IMG/VR virus record: IMGVR_UViG_3300009093_000005
Reading direction: 5' to 3' (one strand)
Length of the DNA stretch: 64,000 nucleotides
DNA from: a virus
The notes below the pieces were generated by a model, which had not been told where the DNA came from, did no database searches, and saw only the letters and a program-made list of their open reading frames with translations. Positions 3,478 to 64,000 of the stretch are shown here, in pieces. A program made the translations under genes and the position numbers. Position 1 is the stretch's first letter. Each line of letters begins with the position of its first letter.

Positions 3478-3524
3478 GGCGTTTAGCTCCGGTTCGTACT
3501 TCGTTTCATCACATCTGAGACTCA

Positions 3525-3553
3525 ATTCTGATCCATCTTTCTGGCGCCGTCAA
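3525..3553 (-). promoter_or_regulatory. Sigma70-like leftward early promoter TTGACG-N17-CAGAAT
   Basis: -35 at 3548-3553, -10 at 3525-3530, exact 17-nt spacer, about 45 nt upstream of the first repeat-started gene. Confidence 0.6.
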
Positions 3554-6850: not shown

Positions 6851-7710
6851 TGGCCTTCCAAGCATCCAAGAAACGCGAACGTCGCGCCCGACAACCGCTC
6901 GCGCTCGGAAAGCCGATCGGCCCGAGTGCGGCCGTTCGCGTTTGGGCCGAGTCGCAGGTCAACAGCGTCGTAGCCGCGATGCTGGAGGATTATCGCGCTG
7001 AGATCAAGAAGGCGCTAGAGAATCCGGAAGTCCAAGAGCACTTCGCCGCCGACGCGGCCGAAACTTCCGTATTCCAGGCCGTACTGAGACGGCTACAGCG
7101 CAAGTGGGGAGAAGTGTTTCGAGGATTCAGCGCAAAGTACTCGGAGGAGTTTGTAGAGAAGGTCGACGAACACGCCAAGTCATCCACTTGGTACAGCCTG
7201 TCAGCCGCTGGCGTAACGCAGCCCAGATCGACTTACAGCGCGAACGTCGCCAACACGATTCAAGCCGCGAAAGACTTGAACTTTACGTTGGTGACGCGCG
7301 TACAGGAAGAAGTACACGAGAAAATCTACACAGCGGTGATGCTTTCGCTCACTTCTCCGAATCCGGAAGAGCAAGGCGCATCCGGCATCCAGAATGCACT
7401 GAAAGAAGTCGGAATCACAGCAAAAAAACGCGTTGAGCTAATCACGCGAGATCAGACCAGCAAGATGTACTCCTCTTTGGCTAGCGAACGTCTTCGCCAA
7501 AATGGATGCACTCATTTCAAATGGCTCCACTCCAGCGCCGGAAAGACGCCGAGAGAAAGCCATTTAGAAAAGGATGGTGAGATTTTTGAAATCGACGATC
7601 CGCGCTTATGGGAAGGCCCGAAAGGTGACCAAGGCCCTCCTGGATGGGCGATCAACTGTCGGTGCAGAATGACGCCTGTATTCGGCTATGCCGATGAGGA
7701 TGAAGAATAA
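6850..7710 (+). CDS. MuF-like minor head protein
   Basis: ITRDQTSK, WLHS...PRESHLEKDGEIF, PPGWAINCRC motifs; follows portal. Confidence 0.85.
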   Translation: MAFQASKKRERRARQPLALGKPIGPSAAVRVWAESQVNSVVAAMLEDYRAEIKKALENPEVQEHFAADAAETSVFQAVLRRLQRKWGEVFRGFSAKYSEEFVEKVDEHAKSSTWYSLSAAGVTQPRSTYSANVANTIQAAKDLNFTLVTRVQEEVHEKIYTAVMLSLTSPNPEEQGASGIQNALKEVGITAKKRVELITRDQTSKMYSSLASERLRQNGCTHFKWLHSSAGKTPRESHLEKDGEIFEIDDPRLWEGPKGDQGPPGWAINCRCRMTPVFGYADEDEE

Positions 7711-7914
7711 ATGGGAATGAAAGAGACCAACGGGGCCAATCAACCATTATGGAGCATCAAATTGGAACAAGCCAACTCCGTTGCCAGCACAAAGGTCGAT
7801 GTAATCCGTGAACGGCTAATCGAGGCCATCGAATTCATCGAGGAACTTCCATTCATGAGGCCGCAGTGGTGGTCGCTGGACATCGCGCTCATTCTACTGT
7901 TCGTGTGTTTTTGA
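7711..7914 (+). CDS. Small hypothetical protein with C-terminal hydrophobic tail
   Basis: 67 aa, abuts the MuF stop. Confidence 0.45.
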   Translation: MGMKETNGANQPLWSIKLEQANSVASTKVDVIRERLIEAIEFIEELPFMRPQWWSLDIALILLFVCF

Positions 7915-7920
7915 TGTGCG

Positions 7921-8019
7921 AGTTGGGGGAATTGAGTCAATTGCGGTATTTTCTATTCTCCCTACCTCTCTTCTCTTACTTCTCCTATTTAGAGTTGTAA
8001 ATAATAGTCAACTACAACT
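7921..8019 (+). promoter_or_regulatory. Conserved non-coding element copy 1 (candidate late promoter)
   Basis: AGTTGGGGGAATTGAGTC box, about 60-nt pyrimidine tract, TGTAAATAATAGTCAACTA; same architecture at 58048-58151. Confidence 0.55.
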
Positions 8020-8182
8020 TTCGGTGTTAGAAGTCTTGCGCGGCAAGCCGCACGCTCGGTGGGTTTGAAGTTGGCGCGGCAAAGACATAGGCCCAAACCG
8101 CAATTGGACCACGGTGAGTGAATTCGTACACAGAACAAACACACAATACACGCGAAGCACATTTACATCACCGAATCCAGGA

Positions 8183-9673
8183 ATGCCCCAAAGCGCTCGC
8201 CAACAAGATCAGAATGGATACCTCCTAATCAGAGGCTGTCCGATTTCGACTTTCGGCATTTTTCAATACAGCGCTGCACAAGTAGGGTTGCCAGGCGATC
8301 CAAACCGGATCGTCAACGTATATCGTCCGGAAGCGGCAGTAAGCGATCCTGAGTATGTGAATTCATTCCAAGTCGTGCCGTTGATAAACGACCACGAAAT
8401 GTTGAGTGGATTCCAAGGCGATGAGAGCGCGACGGCCCCGGAAGAATACGGCATCGACGGCGTTCTTTACGACGTTGGCTACAAGCAGCCTTGGACTCGC
8501 GGTGATCTGAAGATTTTCTCGCGTTCGATGCAAGCCGATTTGAACGCTGGTAAGAAGGATTTGTCGCTTGGATACACATGCGACTTCGTTTTGGAATCGG
8601 GCACGTTCGATGGTCAGGATTATGAAGTGATCCAGACCAATATGCGCGGCAACCACATCGCGCTCGTTGATATCGGCAGAGTGCCCGGTGCGAAGGTCTT
8701 GGACGGAAAGCGTCTTTGCTTTGATAGTCTGAGTTTCTCCACATTTTCTACCAACGGAGGGGCAATCATGCCTAAACCTCGCAGGGCGCTGGACAGCACC
8801 GTCGTCCAGCAATTGCAAGCCCAGCTGAAGGCACTGTTGCCCACCTTCGAACAGTTTCTGAGTGAGGAGGCCAGCGAGCCTGCCCATCAGGGCGGCGAGG
8901 GTGGTGCTGGTGCCGAAGCTGGTGCAGCAAACGCCGCAGCCAGCGGTGAAGAGCAATCGGCCGTGAATGCAGGCGGCGAAGAAGGCTCGAATGAAACAGG
9001 CATCGCCGCCGATCCGAACGCTGCTGAGGCAGGCGGCGAGATGAACGAAGGCGAAGAGGACGGCGAAAACGAAGCCGCCCTGATGGATGCTCTCAAGCAG
9101 GTGCAAGATATCTGCGCGAAACTGATGTCCCAGATGGGCGGCGCGCAAGCCGGCGCAGGCGGGGATGAAGGTGGCGAGGGCGGCGAGGGCGGCGCTGAAG
9201 GCGGGGAATCGAATGGTGCCGAAGGAACCACGGAGGACACCGTTGAAGGCCTGGCAGGCACGGCCCGCGAAGGTGAGGACGGCGAAGAAGGCGCCGCGCT
9301 CGGAGAGGGCGGACAAGGCAGCGCGTCGGAAGGTCCGGCAGCAGGAAAGCACAAAGGTGCTGACGCTGCGCTTCGTTCTTTCTATGCTGACGCTGCTCGT
9401 AAGAATCGCCTCTACGACCGGCTGTCTCGTGTGGTTGGAGCATTTGACGGGGCAGTGGATGTCGCGGCTGCAACACATGCTGACATCGCTTCTTACGGGG
9501 TGAAGAAACTCGGCATCAAGTGCGCCAAGGGAACTGAGGCGATTGCGCTGGACGCCTATCTCACCGGTGTCGAGAAAGCCTGCAAGTCGAACGCGGTCAC
9601 CACAACGAAACAACGCGCGCAAGACGCCGCCGCAGCTGCGGTGCCGGTCATCGAAGCGTACTTCAAGGAGTAA
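8183..9673 (+). CDS. Prohead protease/scaffold (DUF2213 family)
   Basis: D.NGYLLI...G.FQY, V.RPE, LSLGYTCDF, RGNHIALVD.GR motifs; long acidic Gly/Glu linker; upstream GTG 8114 is an alternative start. Confidence 0.85.
   Translation: MPQSARQQDQNGYLLIRGCPISTFGIFQYSAAQVGLPGDPNRIVNVYRPEAAVSDPEYVNSFQVVPLINDHEMLSGFQGDESATAPEEYGIDGVLYDVGYKQPWTRGDLKIFSRSMQADLNAGKKDLSLGYTCDFVLESGTFDGQDYEVIQTNMRGNHIALVDIGRVPGAKVLDGKRLCFDSLSFSTFSTNGGAIMPKPRRALDSTVVQQLQAQLKALLPTFEQFLSEEASEPAHQGGEGGAGAEAGAANAAASGEEQSAVNAGGEEGSNETGIAADPNAAEAGGEMNEGEEDGENEAALMDALKQVQDICAKLMSQMGGAQAGAGGDEGGEGGEGGAEGGESNGAEGTTEDTVEGLAGTAREGEDGEEGAALGEGGQGSASEGPAAGKHKGADAALRSFYADAARKNRLYDRLSRVVGAFDGAVDVAAATHADIASYGVKKLGIKCAKGTEAIALDAYLTGVEKACKSNAVTTTKQRAQDAAAAAVPVIEAYFKE
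8768..9673 (+). CDS. Putative nested in-frame scaffold protein
   Basis: GGAGG at 8756-8760 then ATG 8768 (MPKPRRALDS...) directly after the protease domain. Confidence 0.5.
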   Translation: MPKPRRALDSTVVQQLQAQLKALLPTFEQFLSEEASEPAHQGGEGGAGAEAGAANAAASGEEQSAVNAGGEEGSNETGIAADPNAAEAGGEMNEGEEDGENEAALMDALKQVQDICAKLMSQMGGAQAGAGGDEGGEGGEGGAEGGESNGAEGTTEDTVEGLAGTAREGEDGEEGAALGEGGQGSASEGPAAGKHKGADAALRSFYADAARKNRLYDRLSRVVGAFDGAVDVAAATHADIASYGVKKLGIKCAKGTEAIALDAYLTGVEKACKSNAVTTTKQRAQDAAAAAVPVIEAYFKE

Positions 9674-49113: not shown

Positions 49114-49923
49114 TTACGCGGCTTGCTCTTCGGGCTGCTGCTCGGCCTCGCCGATCACGAAGTCCAGGTGGCCACGCTCTTCGAGCTTCGAGAGGTAGCT
49201 GCGCACGCTCGCGCCATACAGGAACGGCTTGCAGCCCTTCGCCAGGTCTTCGATCGCGATCATCGAGCCGACTTCGAAGTGGTCCTTGATGTACTCCAGG
49301 ACCTTGCCGCGCGTCGACACGTTTTGCGGCGTGGAAAAGCCGTTGCCCGTGTAGATGACGTGCGTGGCCTTGCTGCGACGCTCGCCATTCACCTTCGTCT
49401 CGGCGCGACGCTGCTCGACCAACTCAGCGCGGCGCGCGACGGCCGCAGCGCGCTCTTCCTTCTTCGCAGCCTTGGCGGCTTCACGTTCGGCCTTCTTCGC
49501 TTCGGCCTCGGCTTCGCGCTGAGCCTTCGCTGCGGCCTTAGCGGCTTCACGTTCGGCCTTCTTCGCTTCCGAGTCCACGCCCTTCGAAGCCTCACGTTCG
49601 GCCTTCTTCGCTTCGCGCGCAGCAGCGGCCTCGGCTTTCTTCGCGTCACGAGCAGCTTGCGCTTCGGCCTTCTTCGCTTCACGCTCGGCAGCGGCAGCGG
49701 CCTTCTTCGCTTCGCGTTCATCGGCCTTGCGTTGGCGCTCTGCTTCGGCAGCGGCACGCTTTTCTTCACGCTCGCGTTCGAGTTGCGCTTTCTTCGCTGC
49801 CTTCTCTGCTTCCGCCTTTTCGGCCTCAGTCGGCTCCGGTGTCGGGTTCACCTGCGTGGCCACGTCACCATCGTCGTCCGAATGATGCTCGTGATTGTGA
49901 TGATGACCATGTGCGTGCGACAT
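49114..49923 (-). CDS. His-tailed, Lys/Ala/Glu-repeat protein with C-terminal winged-helix-like domain (putative DNA-binding)
   Basis: MSHAHGHHHNHEHH; repeated EAKKAE; C-terminal RGKVLEYI...VRSYLSKLEERGHL; strong RBS and terminator. Confidence 0.8.
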   Translation of the reverse strand: MSHAHGHHHNHEHHSDDDGDVATQVNPTPEPTEAEKAEAEKAAKKAQLEREREEKRAAAEAERQRKADEREAKKAAAAAEREAKKAEAQAARDAKKAEAAAAREAKKAEREASKGVDSEAKKAEREAAKAAAKAQREAEAEAKKAEREAAKAAKKEERAAAVARRAELVEQRRAETKVNGERRSKATHVIYTGNGFSTPQNVSTRGKVLEYIKDHFEVGSMIAIEDLAKGCKPFLYGASVRSYLSKLEERGHLDFVIGEAEQQPEEQAA

Positions 49924-49985: not shown

Positions 49986-50116
49986 CGTGCGCCGCGCAGG
50001 ATATTAGTGTTCAGTTATTCTTCTTTGCGCTGATCCTCTTCTCGCTTGCGCAAGACATTGAAAGGATTCACAAGCCATTGGCCGAATATCAAAAGCCACA
50101 CCGTAAAAGGCGTCAT

Positions 50117-54481: not shown

Positions 54482-54724
54482 TATCGCTCCTGATGTACAT
54501 CGGCTTGGTGTCCGAGTCAGTCACCATAACTGACAGAGGTGAGTATAACGCACAATAAGTGGCGCAATTGGCTCAATAAACAGGTAGAAACTACCGTCTC
54601 TTTTCGGCAACGCGTAAAGCCACCCGGAGTCCAGATTTCGTAGGCAGAATCCGTTTCTGCGCTTTCCGAGTTGAGCGCAACAGCATCAATAACCCAACTC
54701 GCTCAGAGACCAAGAAGGACCGGC

Positions 54725-55864
54725 ATGGACTATAAAGAACGCCTCAAGGCGGTTGAACTCTTCTTAAACGAACTCGGACGGGGCATACCGGAAGATGAAC
54801 GCGTGATGGTCGGCTATGCCTCAGAAGCCACCGTGCAAACCGACGCATCCGGAAAGAAGCTCAACGCTGGTTGGTGGCCCGCTCCACATCGCGACGGCAA
54901 AAATATTAAGACCGAGGACAACTGCTATGTCTGCATCTCTTCCTCCAAGAAAACCCCCAACCCTAAGACTGGTGAGCTGCGGTACTGGCGCGGAGATGAA
55001 AGCTTCGGGCACGGACTCGCGCTCATGGTGGATGACATTGGCACAGGCCGTGGATCAAAAGGACTCCTGCATCTGGATCAATTCACGGCTCGCCTTGAGC
55101 CAACAACAGTGGTGGAAACTTCACCAGGAAATCATCAACTCTGGTACTTCCTGGATGCCCCGGAACCGAATCGAAAACGATTTAAAGCTTTCCTCGTGGG
55201 ATTTGTATCTACAGTCCTGGTTGATAAAGGCGGCGATGGCACAATTCGAGACATCAGTCGATATGGCCGGATGCCTGCAGGAATCAATAACAAACGTGAT
55301 AAAGAAAACGAACTCAAGTATGCTGACGAACGCGGCAAGCCGTTTCGTGTCGGACTCGCTGGAGAGCCCAGATACGATCGCCGATACAGCATGGATGCAA
55401 TCGCTAGTGCGTTCGGCTTTCGAGTCGATGACTTCCTGCCTGCCGAAGTAAAACTGACGCCAGAGCAAATCGCCAATCGAGACCAGGAGTTTAAGTGCGA
55501 TGCGATTTGGCTAAGATATGCCGTTCACATTCTGAGCGCGGCCAAGCAAGGCGAAGGGTCCGGTGGTGATGTATCACAGAACATGTCCGGGAAGTATCGT
55601 ATCCGGTGCCCTTGGGGCGATGAACACACCAACGGCGATTCATACGGCGCCTATTTTCGCGGGCCTATTCCAGGCGCAGAATACGAGCATGTTTTCGGTT
55701 GCGGGCACGATACTTGCCGCAAGGAGAAGAAGCGCACCTGGTCGCCATTCATAGACAAAATCGTCATGCCTGCAATCATTGAGGCAATCGAAAATAACAA
55801 CCGTCGTTATGCAGACGGTGATATGGCCAATGTTGAAGTCACTGAGTTCAAGGAACACAAATGA
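54725..55864 (+). CDS. Primase-polymerase (RepB-like primase domain)
   Basis: LMVDDIG, ETSPGNHQLWYFL, R.GRMPAG.N.K, CPWGDEH...CGHDTC; TTG 54671 is an alternative start. Confidence 0.75.
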   Translation: MDYKERLKAVELFLNELGRGIPEDERVMVGYASEATVQTDASGKKLNAGWWPAPHRDGKNIKTEDNCYVCISSSKKTPNPKTGELRYWRGDESFGHGLALMVDDIGTGRGSKGLLHLDQFTARLEPTTVVETSPGNHQLWYFLDAPEPNRKRFKAFLVGFVSTVLVDKGGDGTIRDISRYGRMPAGINNKRDKENELKYADERGKPFRVGLAGEPRYDRRYSMDAIASAFGFRVDDFLPAEVKLTPEQIANRDQEFKCDAIWLRYAVHILSAAKQGEGSGGDVSQNMSGKYRIRCPWGDEHTNGDSYGAYFRGPIPGAEYEHVFGCGHDTCRKEKKRTWSPFIDKIVMPAIIEAIENNNRRYADGDMANVEVTEFKEHK

Positions 55865-56172: not shown

Positions 56173-57762
56173 ATGATTGATTTGAATGATATCGCAGATG
56201 GTGCTGAAGAAGAGGCGCAGCGCAAGTTGGAAGGAGTGCAAGCTAGGCGCCTAGAGATCGCGGCCGAAGCGCAACAACGTGCCGAGTCAATGAGAAATGA
56301 AAGGGACATTGTGAAGCGGGCGAGGTTGTTGGCGTCCACGCAGCTGATCGATTTCCCGGATGTGAAGAAGGTGCGACAAGGCGACTCATTCATCACGCAG
56401 CCGTTGATGACGGATCAGAACAAGTGGCGTGTGTTGGATGCGCTGTTCGAAGGGCAAGACGAGCATATGCCGCACCGTGACCACTATCGCGGCCGGATCG
56501 TGGATCACGAGGGGAAGATCATCGATGATCACTATTCGGTCGTGCGCTGGGTCTCGGCGTTCTCGGCAGCAGGGCTGAAAGGGGTCGGCGCGAACGGCGC
56601 GCGTGACGCGATCCGGGAATGGGCGTTACAACACGAGCGCAACGACTTGATCAACAACGTCGAAAGCAACATGCCAGAGTGGGACGGTAAGGAGCGCATG
56701 CGACGGTTTCTGATCGAGTTCTTCGAGAGCCATGAGACGCCGCTGAACGAGGACTTCGGGCAGTACTTCTGGTTGAGTCTGTACAATCGTGTGATGATCC
56801 CAGGATCGTTGGCGCCGATGGTGCTCTCGCTGTTCGGTGCGCAAGGTTGCGGCAAGTCGCTGTTCGGCAAGAGGCTTTGTCAAATATTGACCGGGAATGA
56901 AGAGGCCGACTCGGTGCAGTTGAACCTGGACGGCGAGAAGCTGGAGTTCTTGCGCAACATCACAGGCAACAGCGTGATCGCTTCGGTCGGTGAAATGACG
57001 GGCTTCACACGTGGCGACTTGAACAAGATCAAGGACTTCATCACGCGCTCATCCGATCAAATGCACTACAAGTTCGAGGGCAATTTCACGCAGCTGCGGC
57101 AGTGGATCACAGTGATGGACGGCAATAAGTATGAAGGCCTCCAGCGTGATGACTCCGGGAATCGGCGCTTCTATCCGATGTTTTGCGGACAGCTGCCTGA
57201 TAAGTTGGGCAGACCGGATTGGCGGCCGGACTTTGTGGTGGAGGCCGATCGCTGGGCTTCGCTCGAAGGGGAAGTGTGGCAGATCATGGCGGAAGCCGCG
57301 AAGTGGATGGACGACAACGGCGAGCACCGCTACAACAAGTTCGTCTCATATGTGATCAATCAGGTTCGCGACTTCTCCAATGCCGAGATGGCTCGCGACT
57401 CTGGGACCATCCAGGATGATGTTTTTGATGTGTACCTGGTGCCGATGCTAAAGGAGGGGCCGAAGCTGATGTGGCGCCGCTCCAACGGCGAGGAGTGTGT
57501 GGGCGTTAAGGCCGGTGAGTTTAAGCGCTTCTTCCAGGACCGGAACAAGCACCTGAAGCCGAACTGGCGCCACCTTAAACACAAGATGTTGTCGTTGGGC
57601 GCGATCGAGCACGCGTTTTCGGGCGGCTATCCGGGATATTTATTCCCACAGTTCAAGAGTGTTTTGGACTTCGAGATGAAGATTGGGGAGAAAGAGTACA
57701 CTGATGATGGCTCTATCGTGTCGATTTCTGAGGCCATTGGTGGAGGGGGCGGAGGGTTTTGA
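56173..57762 (+). CDS. VapE/VirE-like P-loop ATPase (replicative helicase partner of primase)
   Basis: PEWDG..R, FGAQGCGKS, GEM, K.FIT...D..R/H.K, N....L..D.SGNRRF.P. Confidence 0.85.
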   Translation: MIDLNDIADGAEEEAQRKLEGVQARRLEIAAEAQQRAESMRNERDIVKRARLLASTQLIDFPDVKKVRQGDSFITQPLMTDQNKWRVLDALFEGQDEHMPHRDHYRGRIVDHEGKIIDDHYSVVRWVSAFSAAGLKGVGANGARDAIREWALQHERNDLINNVESNMPEWDGKERMRRFLIEFFESHETPLNEDFGQYFWLSLYNRVMIPGSLAPMVLSLFGAQGCGKSLFGKRLCQILTGNEEADSVQLNLDGEKLEFLRNITGNSVIASVGEMTGFTRGDLNKIKDFITRSSDQMHYKFEGNFTQLRQWITVMDGNKYEGLQRDDSGNRRFYPMFCGQLPDKLGRPDWRPDFVVEADRWASLEGEVWQIMAEAAKWMDDNGEHRYNKFVSYVINQVRDFSNAEMARDSGTIQDDVFDVYLVPMLKEGPKLMWRRSNGEECVGVKAGEFKRFFQDRNKHLKPNWRHLKHKMLSLGAIEHAFSGGYPGYLFPQFKSVLDFEMKIGEKEYTDDGSIVSISEAIGGGGGGF

Positions 57763-57806
57763 GGACTTTGTGTTTGGCTATTGATTCGATTATGTAGGGT
57801 GTTTGG

Positions 57807-57832
57807 CGGCCACTGATGTGGCCGTTTTGCTT
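57807..57832 (+). terminator. Intrinsic terminator of the primase operon
   Basis: cggccac-tgat-gtggccg followed by ttttgctt. Confidence 0.7.
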
Positions 57833-58047
57833 GGGAATGTGTTCATGGATTGTGGCTAATACGGAATGGGTCAGCAGAGCAAGTGGCTTGAACCCTGATA
57901 AGAAAAATATTTGTTGACGGATTTCGTGTTTTAAGCGTCGTGGATTCTTGGTGTACTGGCAGTGAACGGTTGGAAAACTTGGCCAACTGGCCTGGGCCAC
58001 TGGAGTGGCTTGTGTTGCACCATTTGTACACCGATGTGGCAGGCCTC

Positions 58048-58151
58048 AGTTGAGGAAATTGAGTCTTGAGCAGACTCCGCTATTCTCTATTCCTCTCTAT
58101 TTTCTATTTCTTCTATTTACTATTGATATAAATAAGTCAACTAGTCAACTA
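58048..58151 (+). promoter_or_regulatory. Conserved non-coding element copy 2 (candidate late promoter)
   Basis: AGTTGAGGAAATTGAGTC box, pyrimidine tract, TATAAATAAGTCAACTA(GTCAACTA); matches 7921-8019. Confidence 0.55.
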
Positions 58152-58445
58152 AGCCTTCTCCGGTTTGGGCCGGACACTGAGTGCAAGTCAGTTGGGCGCG
58201 GCTATTCCCAGGATTTGGTCAATCTGACTGTAATTTGGCGCACCTTGCGGCCGTGCCCGATGGTCACGAGCCGTCGCTCACTCGCAGGTCAAGGCGCGGC
58301 AATATCATCGGCCACAAACACAAGGCGCACCAGCAGTCAGCCCAACGCACCAATGCCGATCGCCCACGCAATCAAGGTGAAAGCGTCACGGCCACTATAT
58401 GTCCGTACAATCGCCCGCAAGCGACACTCACACAGCACAATCACC

Positions 58446-59090
58446 ATGGCACGCTCCAAGCGCACCTCAACGCGTAACAGCGAAGACGACCAAAGCACAT
58501 TTGACGACAACGGAAATCCGTTGGACATAGTCACATCTGCCATTCTGCCAGCGTACCACTTCCGTGACGAGGACTTTGCTCAGCGCAACTTGGTGGCAGT
58601 CGCCGAGTACGCTGGATACCGCGCTTTGGGTGTGAATGCCGAGCGGGCATTTCTGCGCACATTCGGAACCGACTATGCAGACCCGCATCTCACATCGAGA
58701 ATCGAAGCCCTAGAACACAACGTCATCTATCGCCGAGCTTTCCTGGAGGCATTCAGCAAAGTCAAAGTAGGTGAGATGTGGGATGTCAAGATGGCGGCGT
58801 GGGAATACCTCCAACTCGTCAACAATCCATTTGTGAAGGACTCCACACGCCTGTCCGCCATTAAGGAGCTCAACGTGCTCTTCGGCATCACCGTGGTGGA
58901 CGACACAGGCAGAACGCGCGCTGGGCGTGGACTCAAGGAGTTCTATGCCGACACAATTGACGCAGAGGCCGGCAGCGTGACACAGGCCACATCGGCCCCA
59001 GCGCGGCGACACCCTGATCCGGGAAGCGCGGACGCCGAAGCGAGAATCGAGGCTCGGAAGGCAGAGAAGGATGCAGCCAGGACACACTAG
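58446..59090 (+). CDS. Probable terminase small subunit
   Basis: 214 aa, lone rightward gene after primase block; helical core ending RLSAIKELNVL.GIT as in TerS-type proteins; weak RBS. Confidence 0.5.
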   Translation: MARSKRTSTRNSEDDQSTFDDNGNPLDIVTSAILPAYHFRDEDFAQRNLVAVAEYAGYRALGVNAERAFLRTFGTDYADPHLTSRIEALEHNVIYRRAFLEAFSKVKVGEMWDVKMAAWEYLQLVNNPFVKDSTRLSAIKELNVLFGITVVDDTGRTRAGRGLKEFYADTIDAEAGSVTQATSAPARRHPDPGSADAEARIEARKAEKDAARTH

Positions 59091-59383: not shown

Positions 59384-59425
59384 GGCCGTGCTCCTGTCAA
59401 AGAGGCACGGCCATTCTATTTCTTC
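59382..59425 (+). terminator. Hairpin, possible + strand terminator, overlapping the RBS/start of 59180-59383
   Basis: atggccgtgc / gcacggccat 10-bp stem followed by tctatttcttc. Confidence 0.45.
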
Positions 59426-63433: not shown

Positions 63434-63750
63434 CGGCCAATCTCCGGCACGCGGTTGTAGTTCTCCAGAACGCAATTGCTAAAGTCGTCCGCTGCCCATT
63501 GGGGTGGATTTTGAATGTTGACGTTGTGCGCCGTCTCACCGCGCTGATACGCCAACAACTCGTCCTCCAGGACGTTGATCGGGTTGCGATACCGAGGATC
63601 GTCGCTGATGTTCAGACGGTCGACCTTACGCGTAACAAGCAACTCCAAGATGTGGTGTTGCGGACCGTTTAGCGCATTGATCAACTGCACGAGAGCCGGA
63701 CCGCTTACGACGACTCGGTCAGGAATCGGATTCTTCAGATTATTCGACAT
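63430..63750 (-). CDS. Hypothetical protein
   Basis: AGGAG-ATG 63750 (MSNNLKNP...). Confidence 0.65.
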   Translation of the reverse strand: MSNNLKNPIPDRVVVSGPALVQLINALNGPQHHILELLVTRKVDRLNISDDPRYRNPINVLEDELLAYQRGETAHNVNIQNPPQWAADDFSNCVLENYNRVPEIGR

Positions 63751-63771
63751 CGATAGGACTCCTGCGGTTGA

Positions 63772-63813
63772 ATGTGAAAATGGCGCGCAATCCAGTGTAG
63801 GACGCGCGCCATT
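63772..63813 (-). terminator. Intrinsic terminator-like hairpin
   Basis: aatggcgcgc / gcgcgccatt 10-bp stem; minus strand followed by ttttcac. Confidence 0.55.
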
Positions 63814-63864
63814 CAAACGAACGGACTACGGGTTAAGTTTACCTCAGTGCTGTGGCCCCGTATG

Positions 63865-63999
63865 CTACACAGCACCGGACTCCCGCAAGATGTCATCTTC
63901 GCTTTTTAACTTGCCTTCGTGGTCGATCCACGCAACCTCCTCGCCTTTCTGGATGGACACGGCGCATCGTTTCGTCTTAACGTTCGCGACGATCGAGCG
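63865..63999 (-). CDS. Hypothetical protein, 3' part only (enters from right edge)
   Basis: Open frame ...RSIVANVKTK...RESGAV* ending at TAG 63865. Confidence 0.45.
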   Translation of the reverse strand, partial: RSIVANVKTKRCAVSIQKGEEVAWIDHEGKLKSEDDILRESGAV

Positions 64000-64000
64000 C

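Follow-up and report, generated by a model that had tools for sequence, protein, structure and literature searches.

The 64,000-nt stretch of viral DNA analysed here (IMG/VR record IMGVR_UViG_3300009093_000005; hereafter the window) makes up the bulk of the genome of an uncultured ~70-kb myophage of the PB1 supergroup. It carries one non-coding element twice, as copy A (7921–8082), 5' of the prohead protease gene, and as copy B (58048–58204), 5' of the small terminase (TerS) gene. The feature is real, conserved and functionally important, and the boxes that compose it are very probably protein-binding sites. We put at roughly one half the probability that A and B are two iteron origins of replication, or an origin and a second cis-acting site in the style of phages P4 and SPP1, located upstream of late promoters. 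The proposal builds on the anatomy of the two copies, their conservation, the instability of their duplexes, the identity of a helicase encoded beside B and the promoter positions of a homologous phage; from these we infer binding, melting and origin function.

Smith–Waterman alignment of A with B yields a score of 54, compared with 18.8 ± 2.3 (maximum 29) for shuffled B and 18.6 ± 2.3 (maximum 28) for random genomic windows. An earlier note on this DNA had described a duplicated element opening with an 18-bp box that is identical at 16 of 18 positions, and this description holds: the box occurs at 7921–7938 and 58048–58065 and nowhere else in the window, and allowing up to three mismatches returns the same number of matches, two, against 0.12 expected. 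The spacers of about 60 nt that it had called pyrimidine-rich measure 61 nt in A and 59 nt in B, with 69–75% A+T and 71–72% pyrimidine on the + strand, and AGTCAACTA forms the 3' end of both copies. The full element extends beyond the one first described.

In copy A, a triplet of words (AGTTG/AATTG/AATTG at 9-bp pitch; 7921–7943, + strand, words at 7921, 7930 and 7939) comprises the 18-bp box and one more word. It is followed by an AT- and pyrimidine-rich core (7947–8007; 69% A+T, 72% pyrimidine), a candidate DNA unwinding element that holds the -10-like TTGTAAATAAT at 7995–8005, and by two inverted iterons on the − strand (8008–8020, CAACT at 8009 and 8015) that face the upstream words. Farther 3' lie a conserved block, GGTGTTAGAAG..CTTGCGCGGCAAG (8023–8047, + strand), whose TTAGAAG and first CGCGGC(A/T) box are common to Pbunavirus 14-1 and Carpasinavirus XcP1, and a downstream iteron joined to a second GCGCGGC box (AGTTGGCGCGGCAA; 8069–8082, + strand). 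This last pattern, AGTTGG(G)CGCGGC, occurs in the window at 8069 and 58190 only.

Copy B is built alike. The word listing places upstream iterons AGTTG (58048) and AATTG (58057) at 9-bp pitch on the + strand (58048–58065) and two inverted iterons on the − strand (58137–58151, CAACT at 58138 and 58146). Between the upstream iterons and the core lies a perfect 6-bp dyad, GAGTCT..AGACTC (58061–58077). The core itself (58078–58136; AT- and pyrimidine-rich, 75% A+T), likewise a candidate DNA unwinding element, holds TGATATAAA (58124–58132) and TATAAATA (58127–58134). A pattern scan found the downstream iteron joined to GCGCGGC (58190–58204), then (T/G)GCGGC boxes at 58245 and 58294 (58190–58310 overall, + strand), which puts successive GCGGC boxes (58196, 58245, 58294) at 49-bp intervals. 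Outlying iteron-like words occur at 57968(+) and 57984(−). A third module common to both copies is a -10-like hexamer, CACAAT or TACAAT, 35–40 nt 5' of each start codon.

Two genome-wide measures single out the copies. With a density of A(G/A)TTG of 0.42 per 100 bp over the genome, copy A carries five strict AGTTG/CAACT words plus AATTG variants within 7921–8082, and copy B five strict and three relaxed words within 57968–58219. A and B are the top two 200-bp intervals for AGTTG/CAACT density in the window and in its relatives G002 and G003; in G001, the first rank goes to A, and B is tied for second. The B core is also the least stable 60-bp duplex in the 64 kb (−63.4 kcal/mol; mean −89.2, standard deviation 5.2) and the A core the second least stable (−68.1 kcal/mol), and the two weakest 60-bp duplexes are the A and B cores in the complete relatives G001, G002 and G003 and in 14-1 as well. 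As a separate observation, the stretches 7943–7996 (54 nt) and 58072–58124 (53 nt), which correspond to the cores, are free of TG/CA and rank second and third longest in the window; if the phage makes TG-specific hypermodified thymidine, the cores would stay unmodified on both strands.

The genomes compared with the window included G001–G004, L055, L056, L060, L069, L070, 14-1, G006, XcP1 and Wifcevirus WFC (Escherichia phage vB_EcoM_WFC). The conservation in relatives to which the earlier note had looked is borne out by tandem words in 12 elements, which come from 7 genomes and comprise both copies from the window and from G001–G004 and two further A copies; we anchored these elements on the first CAACT. 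All 12 follow one plan: A(G/A)TTG words, two or three in number and with a pitch of ~9 bp, precede the core, frequently with a short dyad in between, and inverted words come after it. Its 3' part consists of two CAACT words 6–9 nt apart and then one or two AGTTG words beside GCGCGGC(A/T). Short dyads resembling that of B occur in several relatives. Opposite-facing words, at least two on each side of the core, are present in the window, G001–G004, L055, L056, L060, L069 and G006, and exactly two word clusters per genome in the window, G001–G003, 14-1 and G006. Within-genome identity of A and B (73–85%) compared with identity between genomes (67–85%) gives no clear signal of concerted evolution.

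The word itself is specific to the clade. Phage 14-1 has two matching long gaps, 5' of the protease gene gp22 and of gp76 (its TerS gene), each with an AT-rich core and tandem words; its word is GGTAATT, and 8 of the 10 copies fall within these two gaps. In G006, whose word is GGAAAGTA, two clusters contain 16 of 18 copies (0 + 2 for the control), and tandem pairs face each other. Further clade words are AACTGAGT and AATTGCGG (three copies, 9-bp pitch) and ATAGTT, and WFC uses a GATACG-type word. TTAGAAG followed by CT(T/C)GCGGCA is a block held in common across clades; B of the window lacks the TTAGAAG block. XcP1 retains a B-type module and has only a simple protease leader, and the persistence of the B-type module alone is what one would expect if B is the essential site.

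The CGCGGC(A/T) boxes next to the iterons are conserved in all clades, as is a RepB-type primase, and it is possible that they are sites for the primase or for another conserved factor. Their spacing in the leaders is 36 bp in A, 49/49 bp in B and 58/58 bp in 14-1. GCGCGGC occurs 67 times in the window (44 on the + strand; for example at 8038, 8074, 58196, 58245 and 58294) against 34.9 expected under an order-2 model, and (G/T)CGCGGC is the most over-represented 7-mer in G002 (125 versus 48.9) and in 14-1 (TCGCGGC, 81 versus 32).

Immediately before B lie the genes for a RepB-type primase (pri; 54671–55864, + strand; PF16793, E 1.9e-30; 62% identical to the 14-1 primase) and a VapE-like superfamily-3 helicase (rep; 56173–57762, + strand; PF05272), the latter with a C-terminal winged-helix-like domain at residues ~416–503. 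The main iteron cluster of B begins 286 bp past the rep stop codon, the first iteron-like word being that at 57968, and the order primase–helicase–B is repeated in G001, G002, G003, 14-1, L069 and L070. Adjacency to rep is a property of B and not of A. A sequence search of the PDB with the helicase returned a sole match, 7PDS (phmmer E 2.6e-10), the complex of the Rep1 protein of the staphylococcal pathogenicity island (SaPI) SaPI1 with DNA (PMC9371898). The AlphaFold model of the helicase (predicted local distance difference test score, pLDDT, 85.7) led to the same entry with Foldseek (E 2.4e-16, versus 1.8e-7 for the next match) and with VIA (Z 23.7, root-mean-square deviation 5.0 over 387 residues, model 56–506 on chain 15–472; next Z 12.3). 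Judged by this model, the structural homology of the helicase to the SaPI1 initiator Rep1 extends over the full length of the protein. Residues 416–503 have the predicted topology H-E-E-H-H-E-E-H, the whole-protein alignment with Rep1 passes through them, and the VIA matches of the domain alone are nearly all winged-helix domains (Cdt1, ORC, RFX, HSF, Fur).

Sequence divergence within the helicase points to the part that may recognize the word. Identity over the whole helicase declines from 52–65% within the AGTTG clade to 38% with 14-1; the ATPase core stays at 53–68%, unlike the C-terminal 90 residues, which are 51–72% identical within the clade versus 16–20% with 14-1. The primase shows no drop (62% to 14-1 versus 59–65% within the clade) and TerS no comparable one (43% versus 46–53%). 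A relative with a 48%-identical helicase C-terminal region uses AACTGAGT, one base off AATTGAGT, and a relative with a 39%-identical region uses AATTGCGG. Because the divergence of the C-terminal domain tracks the word, and the primase and TerS show no such drop, this domain is the presumed reader of the word.

In the mechanism that we propose, the iteron word would have the core AGTTG and a fuller form close to A(G/A)TTGA(G/C)T, repeated every 9 bp on one side of the core and reversed on the other, and its reader would be part of the helicase that the phage itself encodes, namely the C-terminal winged-helix domain of this Rep1-like, self-loading protein. Once assembled on the iterons, hexamers of the helicase would melt the core, the weakest duplex of the genome, and replication would start there. 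B, with its pri–rep–ori layout, would be the primary origin, and A a second origin or a second cis-acting site comparable to P4 crr or SPP1 oriR. The modules are embedded in the long leaders of two late units whose actual promoters would be separate, and a start site inside the module may exist in addition, as in 14-1. An origin would account for the opposite-facing words, the 9-bp pitch, the weakest-duplex cores, the pri–rep neighbour, the clade-specific words and the persistence of B without A.

Information on the promoters comes chiefly from 14-1. The earlier note was not aware of a late promoter defined for this phage group, a statement that is out of date given the published ONT-cappable-seq start-site map of 14-1 (Putzeys et al. 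2024, PMC10914365; supplement of bioRxiv 10.1101/2023.10.13.562163). The supplement lists 50 start sites, three of which lie within the homologous leaders. P014 (start 13257, TATAAT + 6 nt) is 5' of the protease gene and P041 (start 59807, TACAAT + 6 nt) is 5' of the TerS gene; P040 starts at 59399 in the B-equivalent module, at a point 14 nt past the tandem words; CTTGCGGCA follows 8 nt later, and the resulting transcript (TU045) continues through the TerS gene. None of the mapped 14-1 start sites is within either AT-rich core. The window contains homologous elements at both places, namely a -35-less promoter proximal to the protease gene (8142–8154, + strand; -10 CACAAT at 8142–8147, homologous to P014, predicted start ~8154) and another proximal to the TerS gene (58406–58418, + strand; -10 TACAAT at 58406–58411, homologous to P041, predicted start ~58418). 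They reproduce the 14-1 layout of a -10 element, a 6-nt discriminator and a start 30–90 nt before the protease or TerS start codon, and lie 110–270 bp downstream of the duplicated element. The proximal -10 elements are conserved in all relatives and occur essentially only at A and B; at the B site, G003 has a complete TTGACA-N15-TATAAT. From these sequences, the late-unit promoters are most probably the proximal elements, with starts near 8154 and 58418, and by analogy with P040 promoter activity inside the module is possible as well.

Judged by the octamer at its -10 position, the duplicated element is not a T4-like late promoter. The octamer TATAAATA, which the earlier note had equated with the T4 late-promoter consensus, is present in B at the position given above and is not conserved: A reads TTGTAAATAAT in its place, with TGTAAATAA as the counterpart of the octamer, and all relatives examined have TACAAT, TATAAT or TA runs. 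A scan for sigma-70-type promoters, with -35 and -10 hexamers 16–18 bp apart, over 7600–8300 and 57600–58600 found none on the + strand, and minus-strand matches were at chance level. Two smaller observations of the same note were confirmed as sequence and fared less well as statistics. The 11-mer near both copies is exact at 8090(+) and 58161(−), and its count with up to one mismatch (4 versus 1.43 expected) was reached by 5 of 100 shuffles; AATTGAGTC at 3519–3527(−) is real and weakly significant (3 versus 0.77 expected, again reached by 5 of 100 shuffles).

Several points weigh against A and B being origins. A is surrounded by head genes and is not beside the rep gene. The element has a direction and in every case stands 5' of late genes, neither of which is needed for an origin alone; nor would an origin alone explain the constant place of the second copy before the head genes. 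Cumulative GC skew (minimum 54963, maximum 26594) follows gene strand and gives no signal at A or B. The C-terminal domain of the helicase, modelled alone, had no Foldseek match in the PDB at E <= 0.001 and only middling scores in a wide VIA search (Z 4.3–6.0), and its co-variation with the word is confounded by phylogeny. In 14-1, the words do not clearly follow the opposite-orientation rule. A -10-like TA(Y)AAT is fixed 2–3 nt from the inverted words in most copies, and P040 demonstrates that at least one relative has a working promoter within the module. The WFC genome as deposited has its left end inside the AT core of the B equivalent, which could point to packaging. Origin function, in this phage and in its relatives, is deduced from sequence and structural models.

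It is possible, if rather unlikely, that the element is instead a regulated late promoter or operator, with the words as operators for a phage transcription factor that switches both late units on or off, the core as a bendable or UP-like sequence, and a -35-less -10 at the 3' edge of that core (TGATATAAA in B, TGTAAATAA in A). The earlier note had favoured a reading of this kind, and the probable protein-binding boxes, the promoter-bearing late leaders and the position of P040 in the B-equivalent module agree with it. Both copies are co-oriented with, and 5' of, late units; B has an extended -10 match, TGnTATAAA; a -10-like hexamer stands at constant distance from the inverted words in most relatives; and a terminator-like hairpin between rep and B implies that the TerS gene needs a promoter of its own. 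In 14-1, the TU045 transcript initiated at P040 extends through the TerS gene. For phage JG024, the authors placed a predicted sigma-70 promoter in the corresponding AT-rich box (PMC3008698). The bound protein might act together with the product of gene 1791–2726(−), in the leftward early block, which is 39% identical (E 7e-62) to 14-1 gp12, a DUF6011 protein for which binding to the alpha subunit of RNA polymerase has been reported (PMC10914365). The promoter scan argues the other way, as do the lack of conservation of TATAAATA and the 14-1 map, in which the AT-rich cores have no called start and the protease and TerS promoters are the proximal elements. Words at +1 to +15 and at +60 of the putative start would be odd for an activator, and the pri–rep neighbour, the opposed iterons, the 9-bp pitch and the weakest-duplex cores in five genomes are left unexplained. 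A search for the 14-1 'other motif' was uninformative (174 CTGGG sites); according to the supplement, most promoters of this type lie within genes, and they are not located in the A and B equivalents. Origin and promoter functions might also be combined, in that origin modules double as replication-coupled switches for late transcription, an idea we regard as unlikely. Loading of the Rep1-like helicase and melting of the core 110–270 bp upstream would license or enhance the -35-less late promoters, possibly through the gp12-like alpha-binder, and head, tail and terminase genes would come on only after the start of replication. If true, this would be T4-like logic operating via an origin-bound initiator instead of the sliding clamp, and would explain the second iteron-matched copy before the protease–capsid–tail operon throughout the PB1 supergroup.

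That B, and perhaps A, is a packaging or genome-end site, where the words are TerS sites and the terminase recognizes the DNA, cuts concatemers or generates terminal repeats, is improbable. The pac sites of SPP1-type phages consist of repeats on either side of a cut site adjoining terS, and B is directly upstream of terS. In WFC (NC_048195.1, ~68650–68800), the left end is the start of a 3.8-kb direct terminal repeat, and position 1 sits centrally in the AT-rich core of that genome's B-equivalent module; a terS-like gene follows 360 nt farther on. Against this, A is built alike yet is far from terS and has no known genome end, TerS identity to 14-1 does not fall as that of the helicase C-terminal domain does, and neither end of the 14-1 record falls at its A or B equivalent. 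Moreover, the E217 TerS has no appreciable DNA binding in vitro (PMC9611059), and reads of Pbunavirus Banzai fit headful packaging with no fixed ends (PMC12390725). Least probable by far is a structured leader RNA (attenuator, antiterminator or riboregulator) in both late leaders, with the inverted words as its closing stem. The leaders are long, CAACT is the reverse complement of AGTTG, CAACTT (8015–8020) could pair with AAGTTG (8068–8073), and a pairing is conceivable in 14-1 between GGTAATTTG and, 70 nt farther 3', CAAATTACC. RNA pairing does not explain the direct repeats upstream of the core, and most of the module is upstream of all starts mapped in 14-1. RNAalifold on six A-type leaders gave −1.0 kcal/mol with 6 pairs and 1 compensatory change, essentially no consensus structure, on which result, a weak refutation, we rejected this explanation.

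The genes around the two copies are those that the earlier note had named, with one start codon corrected. Copy A is located between a 67-codon open reading frame (7711–7914) and the prohead protease/scaffold gene (8183–9673, + strand; phrog_3778, E 9.6e-139), which opens a 24-kb structural block. The true start of the protease gene is the ATG at 8183 and not the GTG at 8114, since relatives carry stop codons 5' of a conserved MPxSAR start; the long open reading frame from 8114 overstates the gene. The protease is 52–57% identical to its counterparts in Carpasinavirus (XcP1, MATE2), Wifcevirus, BcepF1-like phages and Myosmarvirus, and no near relative of the window was found in the phage collection compared. 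Copy B occupies a 683-bp non-coding gap between the helicase gene and the TerS gene (58446–59090, + strand; phrog_4783), whose product matches the TerS decamer of Pbunavirus E217 (PDB 7UXE, phmmer E 1.3e-30; PMC9611059). Relatives of TerS sought in viral contigs with peptide patterns gave none and were recovered instead from whole records. Read from the sequence, the hairpin GGCCAC-TGAT-GTGGCC followed by GTTTTGCTT (57808–57832, + strand), which the terminator scan did not flag, is likely to be the terminator of the primase–helicase operon.

The late leaders (8120–8182 and 58300–58445) are C/A-rich and G-poor and could be rut-like or translation-enhancer regions. Leaders of 14-1 and XcP1 have a similar composition, that of XcP1 with four tandem CCCCAGAACAA units. 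Neither the TerS gene nor the protease gene has a normally spaced Shine–Dalgarno sequence; a conserved ATCA(C/T)CATG precedes terS, and GGAATG or CGAATG the protease gene. A third proximal-promoter-like motif (GTATAATCG, with GCGCGGC before it) at 49986(−), upstream of the minus-strand gene 49114–49923, is possibly the promoter of the replication/nucleotide block. Comparison of gene order with XcP1 and 14-1 makes an open reading frame that leaves the end of the window (63575–64000) the probable beginning of the large terminase gene, which would place terS and terL ~5 kb apart with leftward genes in between.

No replication origin has been defined for the PB1/Pbunavirus–Wifcevirus–BcepF1 supergroup, which includes several therapy-candidate phages, and one study that addressed the origin question used cumulative GC skew only (PMC12390725). 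An origin defined precisely enough to be tested, and with its initiator named, would serve engineering and the design of replicons and would explain long conserved non-coding gaps known since 2009–2010 as AT-rich boxes of unknown function (PMC3008698). If our proposal is true, large virulent phages also make use of the SaPI-type combination of self-loading helicase and iterons, and do so in two copies, and with both copies before the two late units a link between replication and late transcription is directly testable.

Judged from its sequence, B answers almost point for point to the published description of a SaPI origin, which comprises penta- or hexanucleotide iterons immediately downstream of rep and a central AT-rich region, with at least two iterons per side in opposite directions that are read by the C-terminal winged helix of Rep (PMC9371898). 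SaPI origins span ~300 bp, and SaPI5 iterons are two bases apart, which gives a 9-bp pitch (preprint 10.64898/2026.10.17.759575). As in the SaPI pri–rep–ori arrangement (SaPI1 Rep1, 7PDS; PriRep5), a primase gene is followed by that of a superfamily-3 helicase and by the candidate origin, in which ~6–8 copies of a pentanucleotide iteron extend over ~250 bp at 9-bp pitch, a number within the 6–12 iterons of SaPIs. Also shared are a central AT-rich region with at least two opposed iterons per side, iteron sequences that vary among lineages and a Rep1-homologous helicase with a C-terminal domain that is predicted to be winged-helix-like. Unlike a satellite island, the present genome is that of a virulent ~70-kb myophage with a RepB-type primase; it has two modules, the second without an adjacent rep and both inside promoter-bearing late-gene leaders, and its main cluster begins 286 bp after the rep stop codon with a terminator-like hairpin between, binding and melting being putative.

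Gene order and leaders are homologous in 14-1, where the proximal -10 elements and their distance from the start codon are conserved and the TTAGAAG..CT(T/C)GCGGCA block beside P040 matches module A. The two differ in the word, GGTAATT in 14-1, and in its position, since the 14-1 tandem words are 5' of the P040 -10 whereas here a -10-like sequence is 5' of the tandem words. WFC differs in its GATACG-type word and in that the core of its B equivalent coincides with the deposited genome end. With T4 late promoters (TATAAATA, gp55/gp33/sliding clamp), B shares the octamer, the lack of a -35 and the late units downstream; neither A nor any relative examined has the octamer, and the flanking iterons have no T4 counterpart. 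In P4 (ori and crr; alpha primase-helicase) and SPP1 (oriL and oriR; G38P), one initiator serves the same short repeats at two sites kilobases apart; the second site of SPP1 is in the late region, and P4 alpha has a C-terminal winged-helix origin-binding domain. The window likewise has a second cluster of matching iterons kilobases away, although its initiator is of a family unrelated to that of SPP1 and only distantly related to that of P4. Its two copies have the entire module in common, AT core included, and a late promoter follows each of them. Among known systems, A and B are most likely a further case of iteron origins of the SaPI/P4 kind, a pair in one genome with each member lying inside a late leader.

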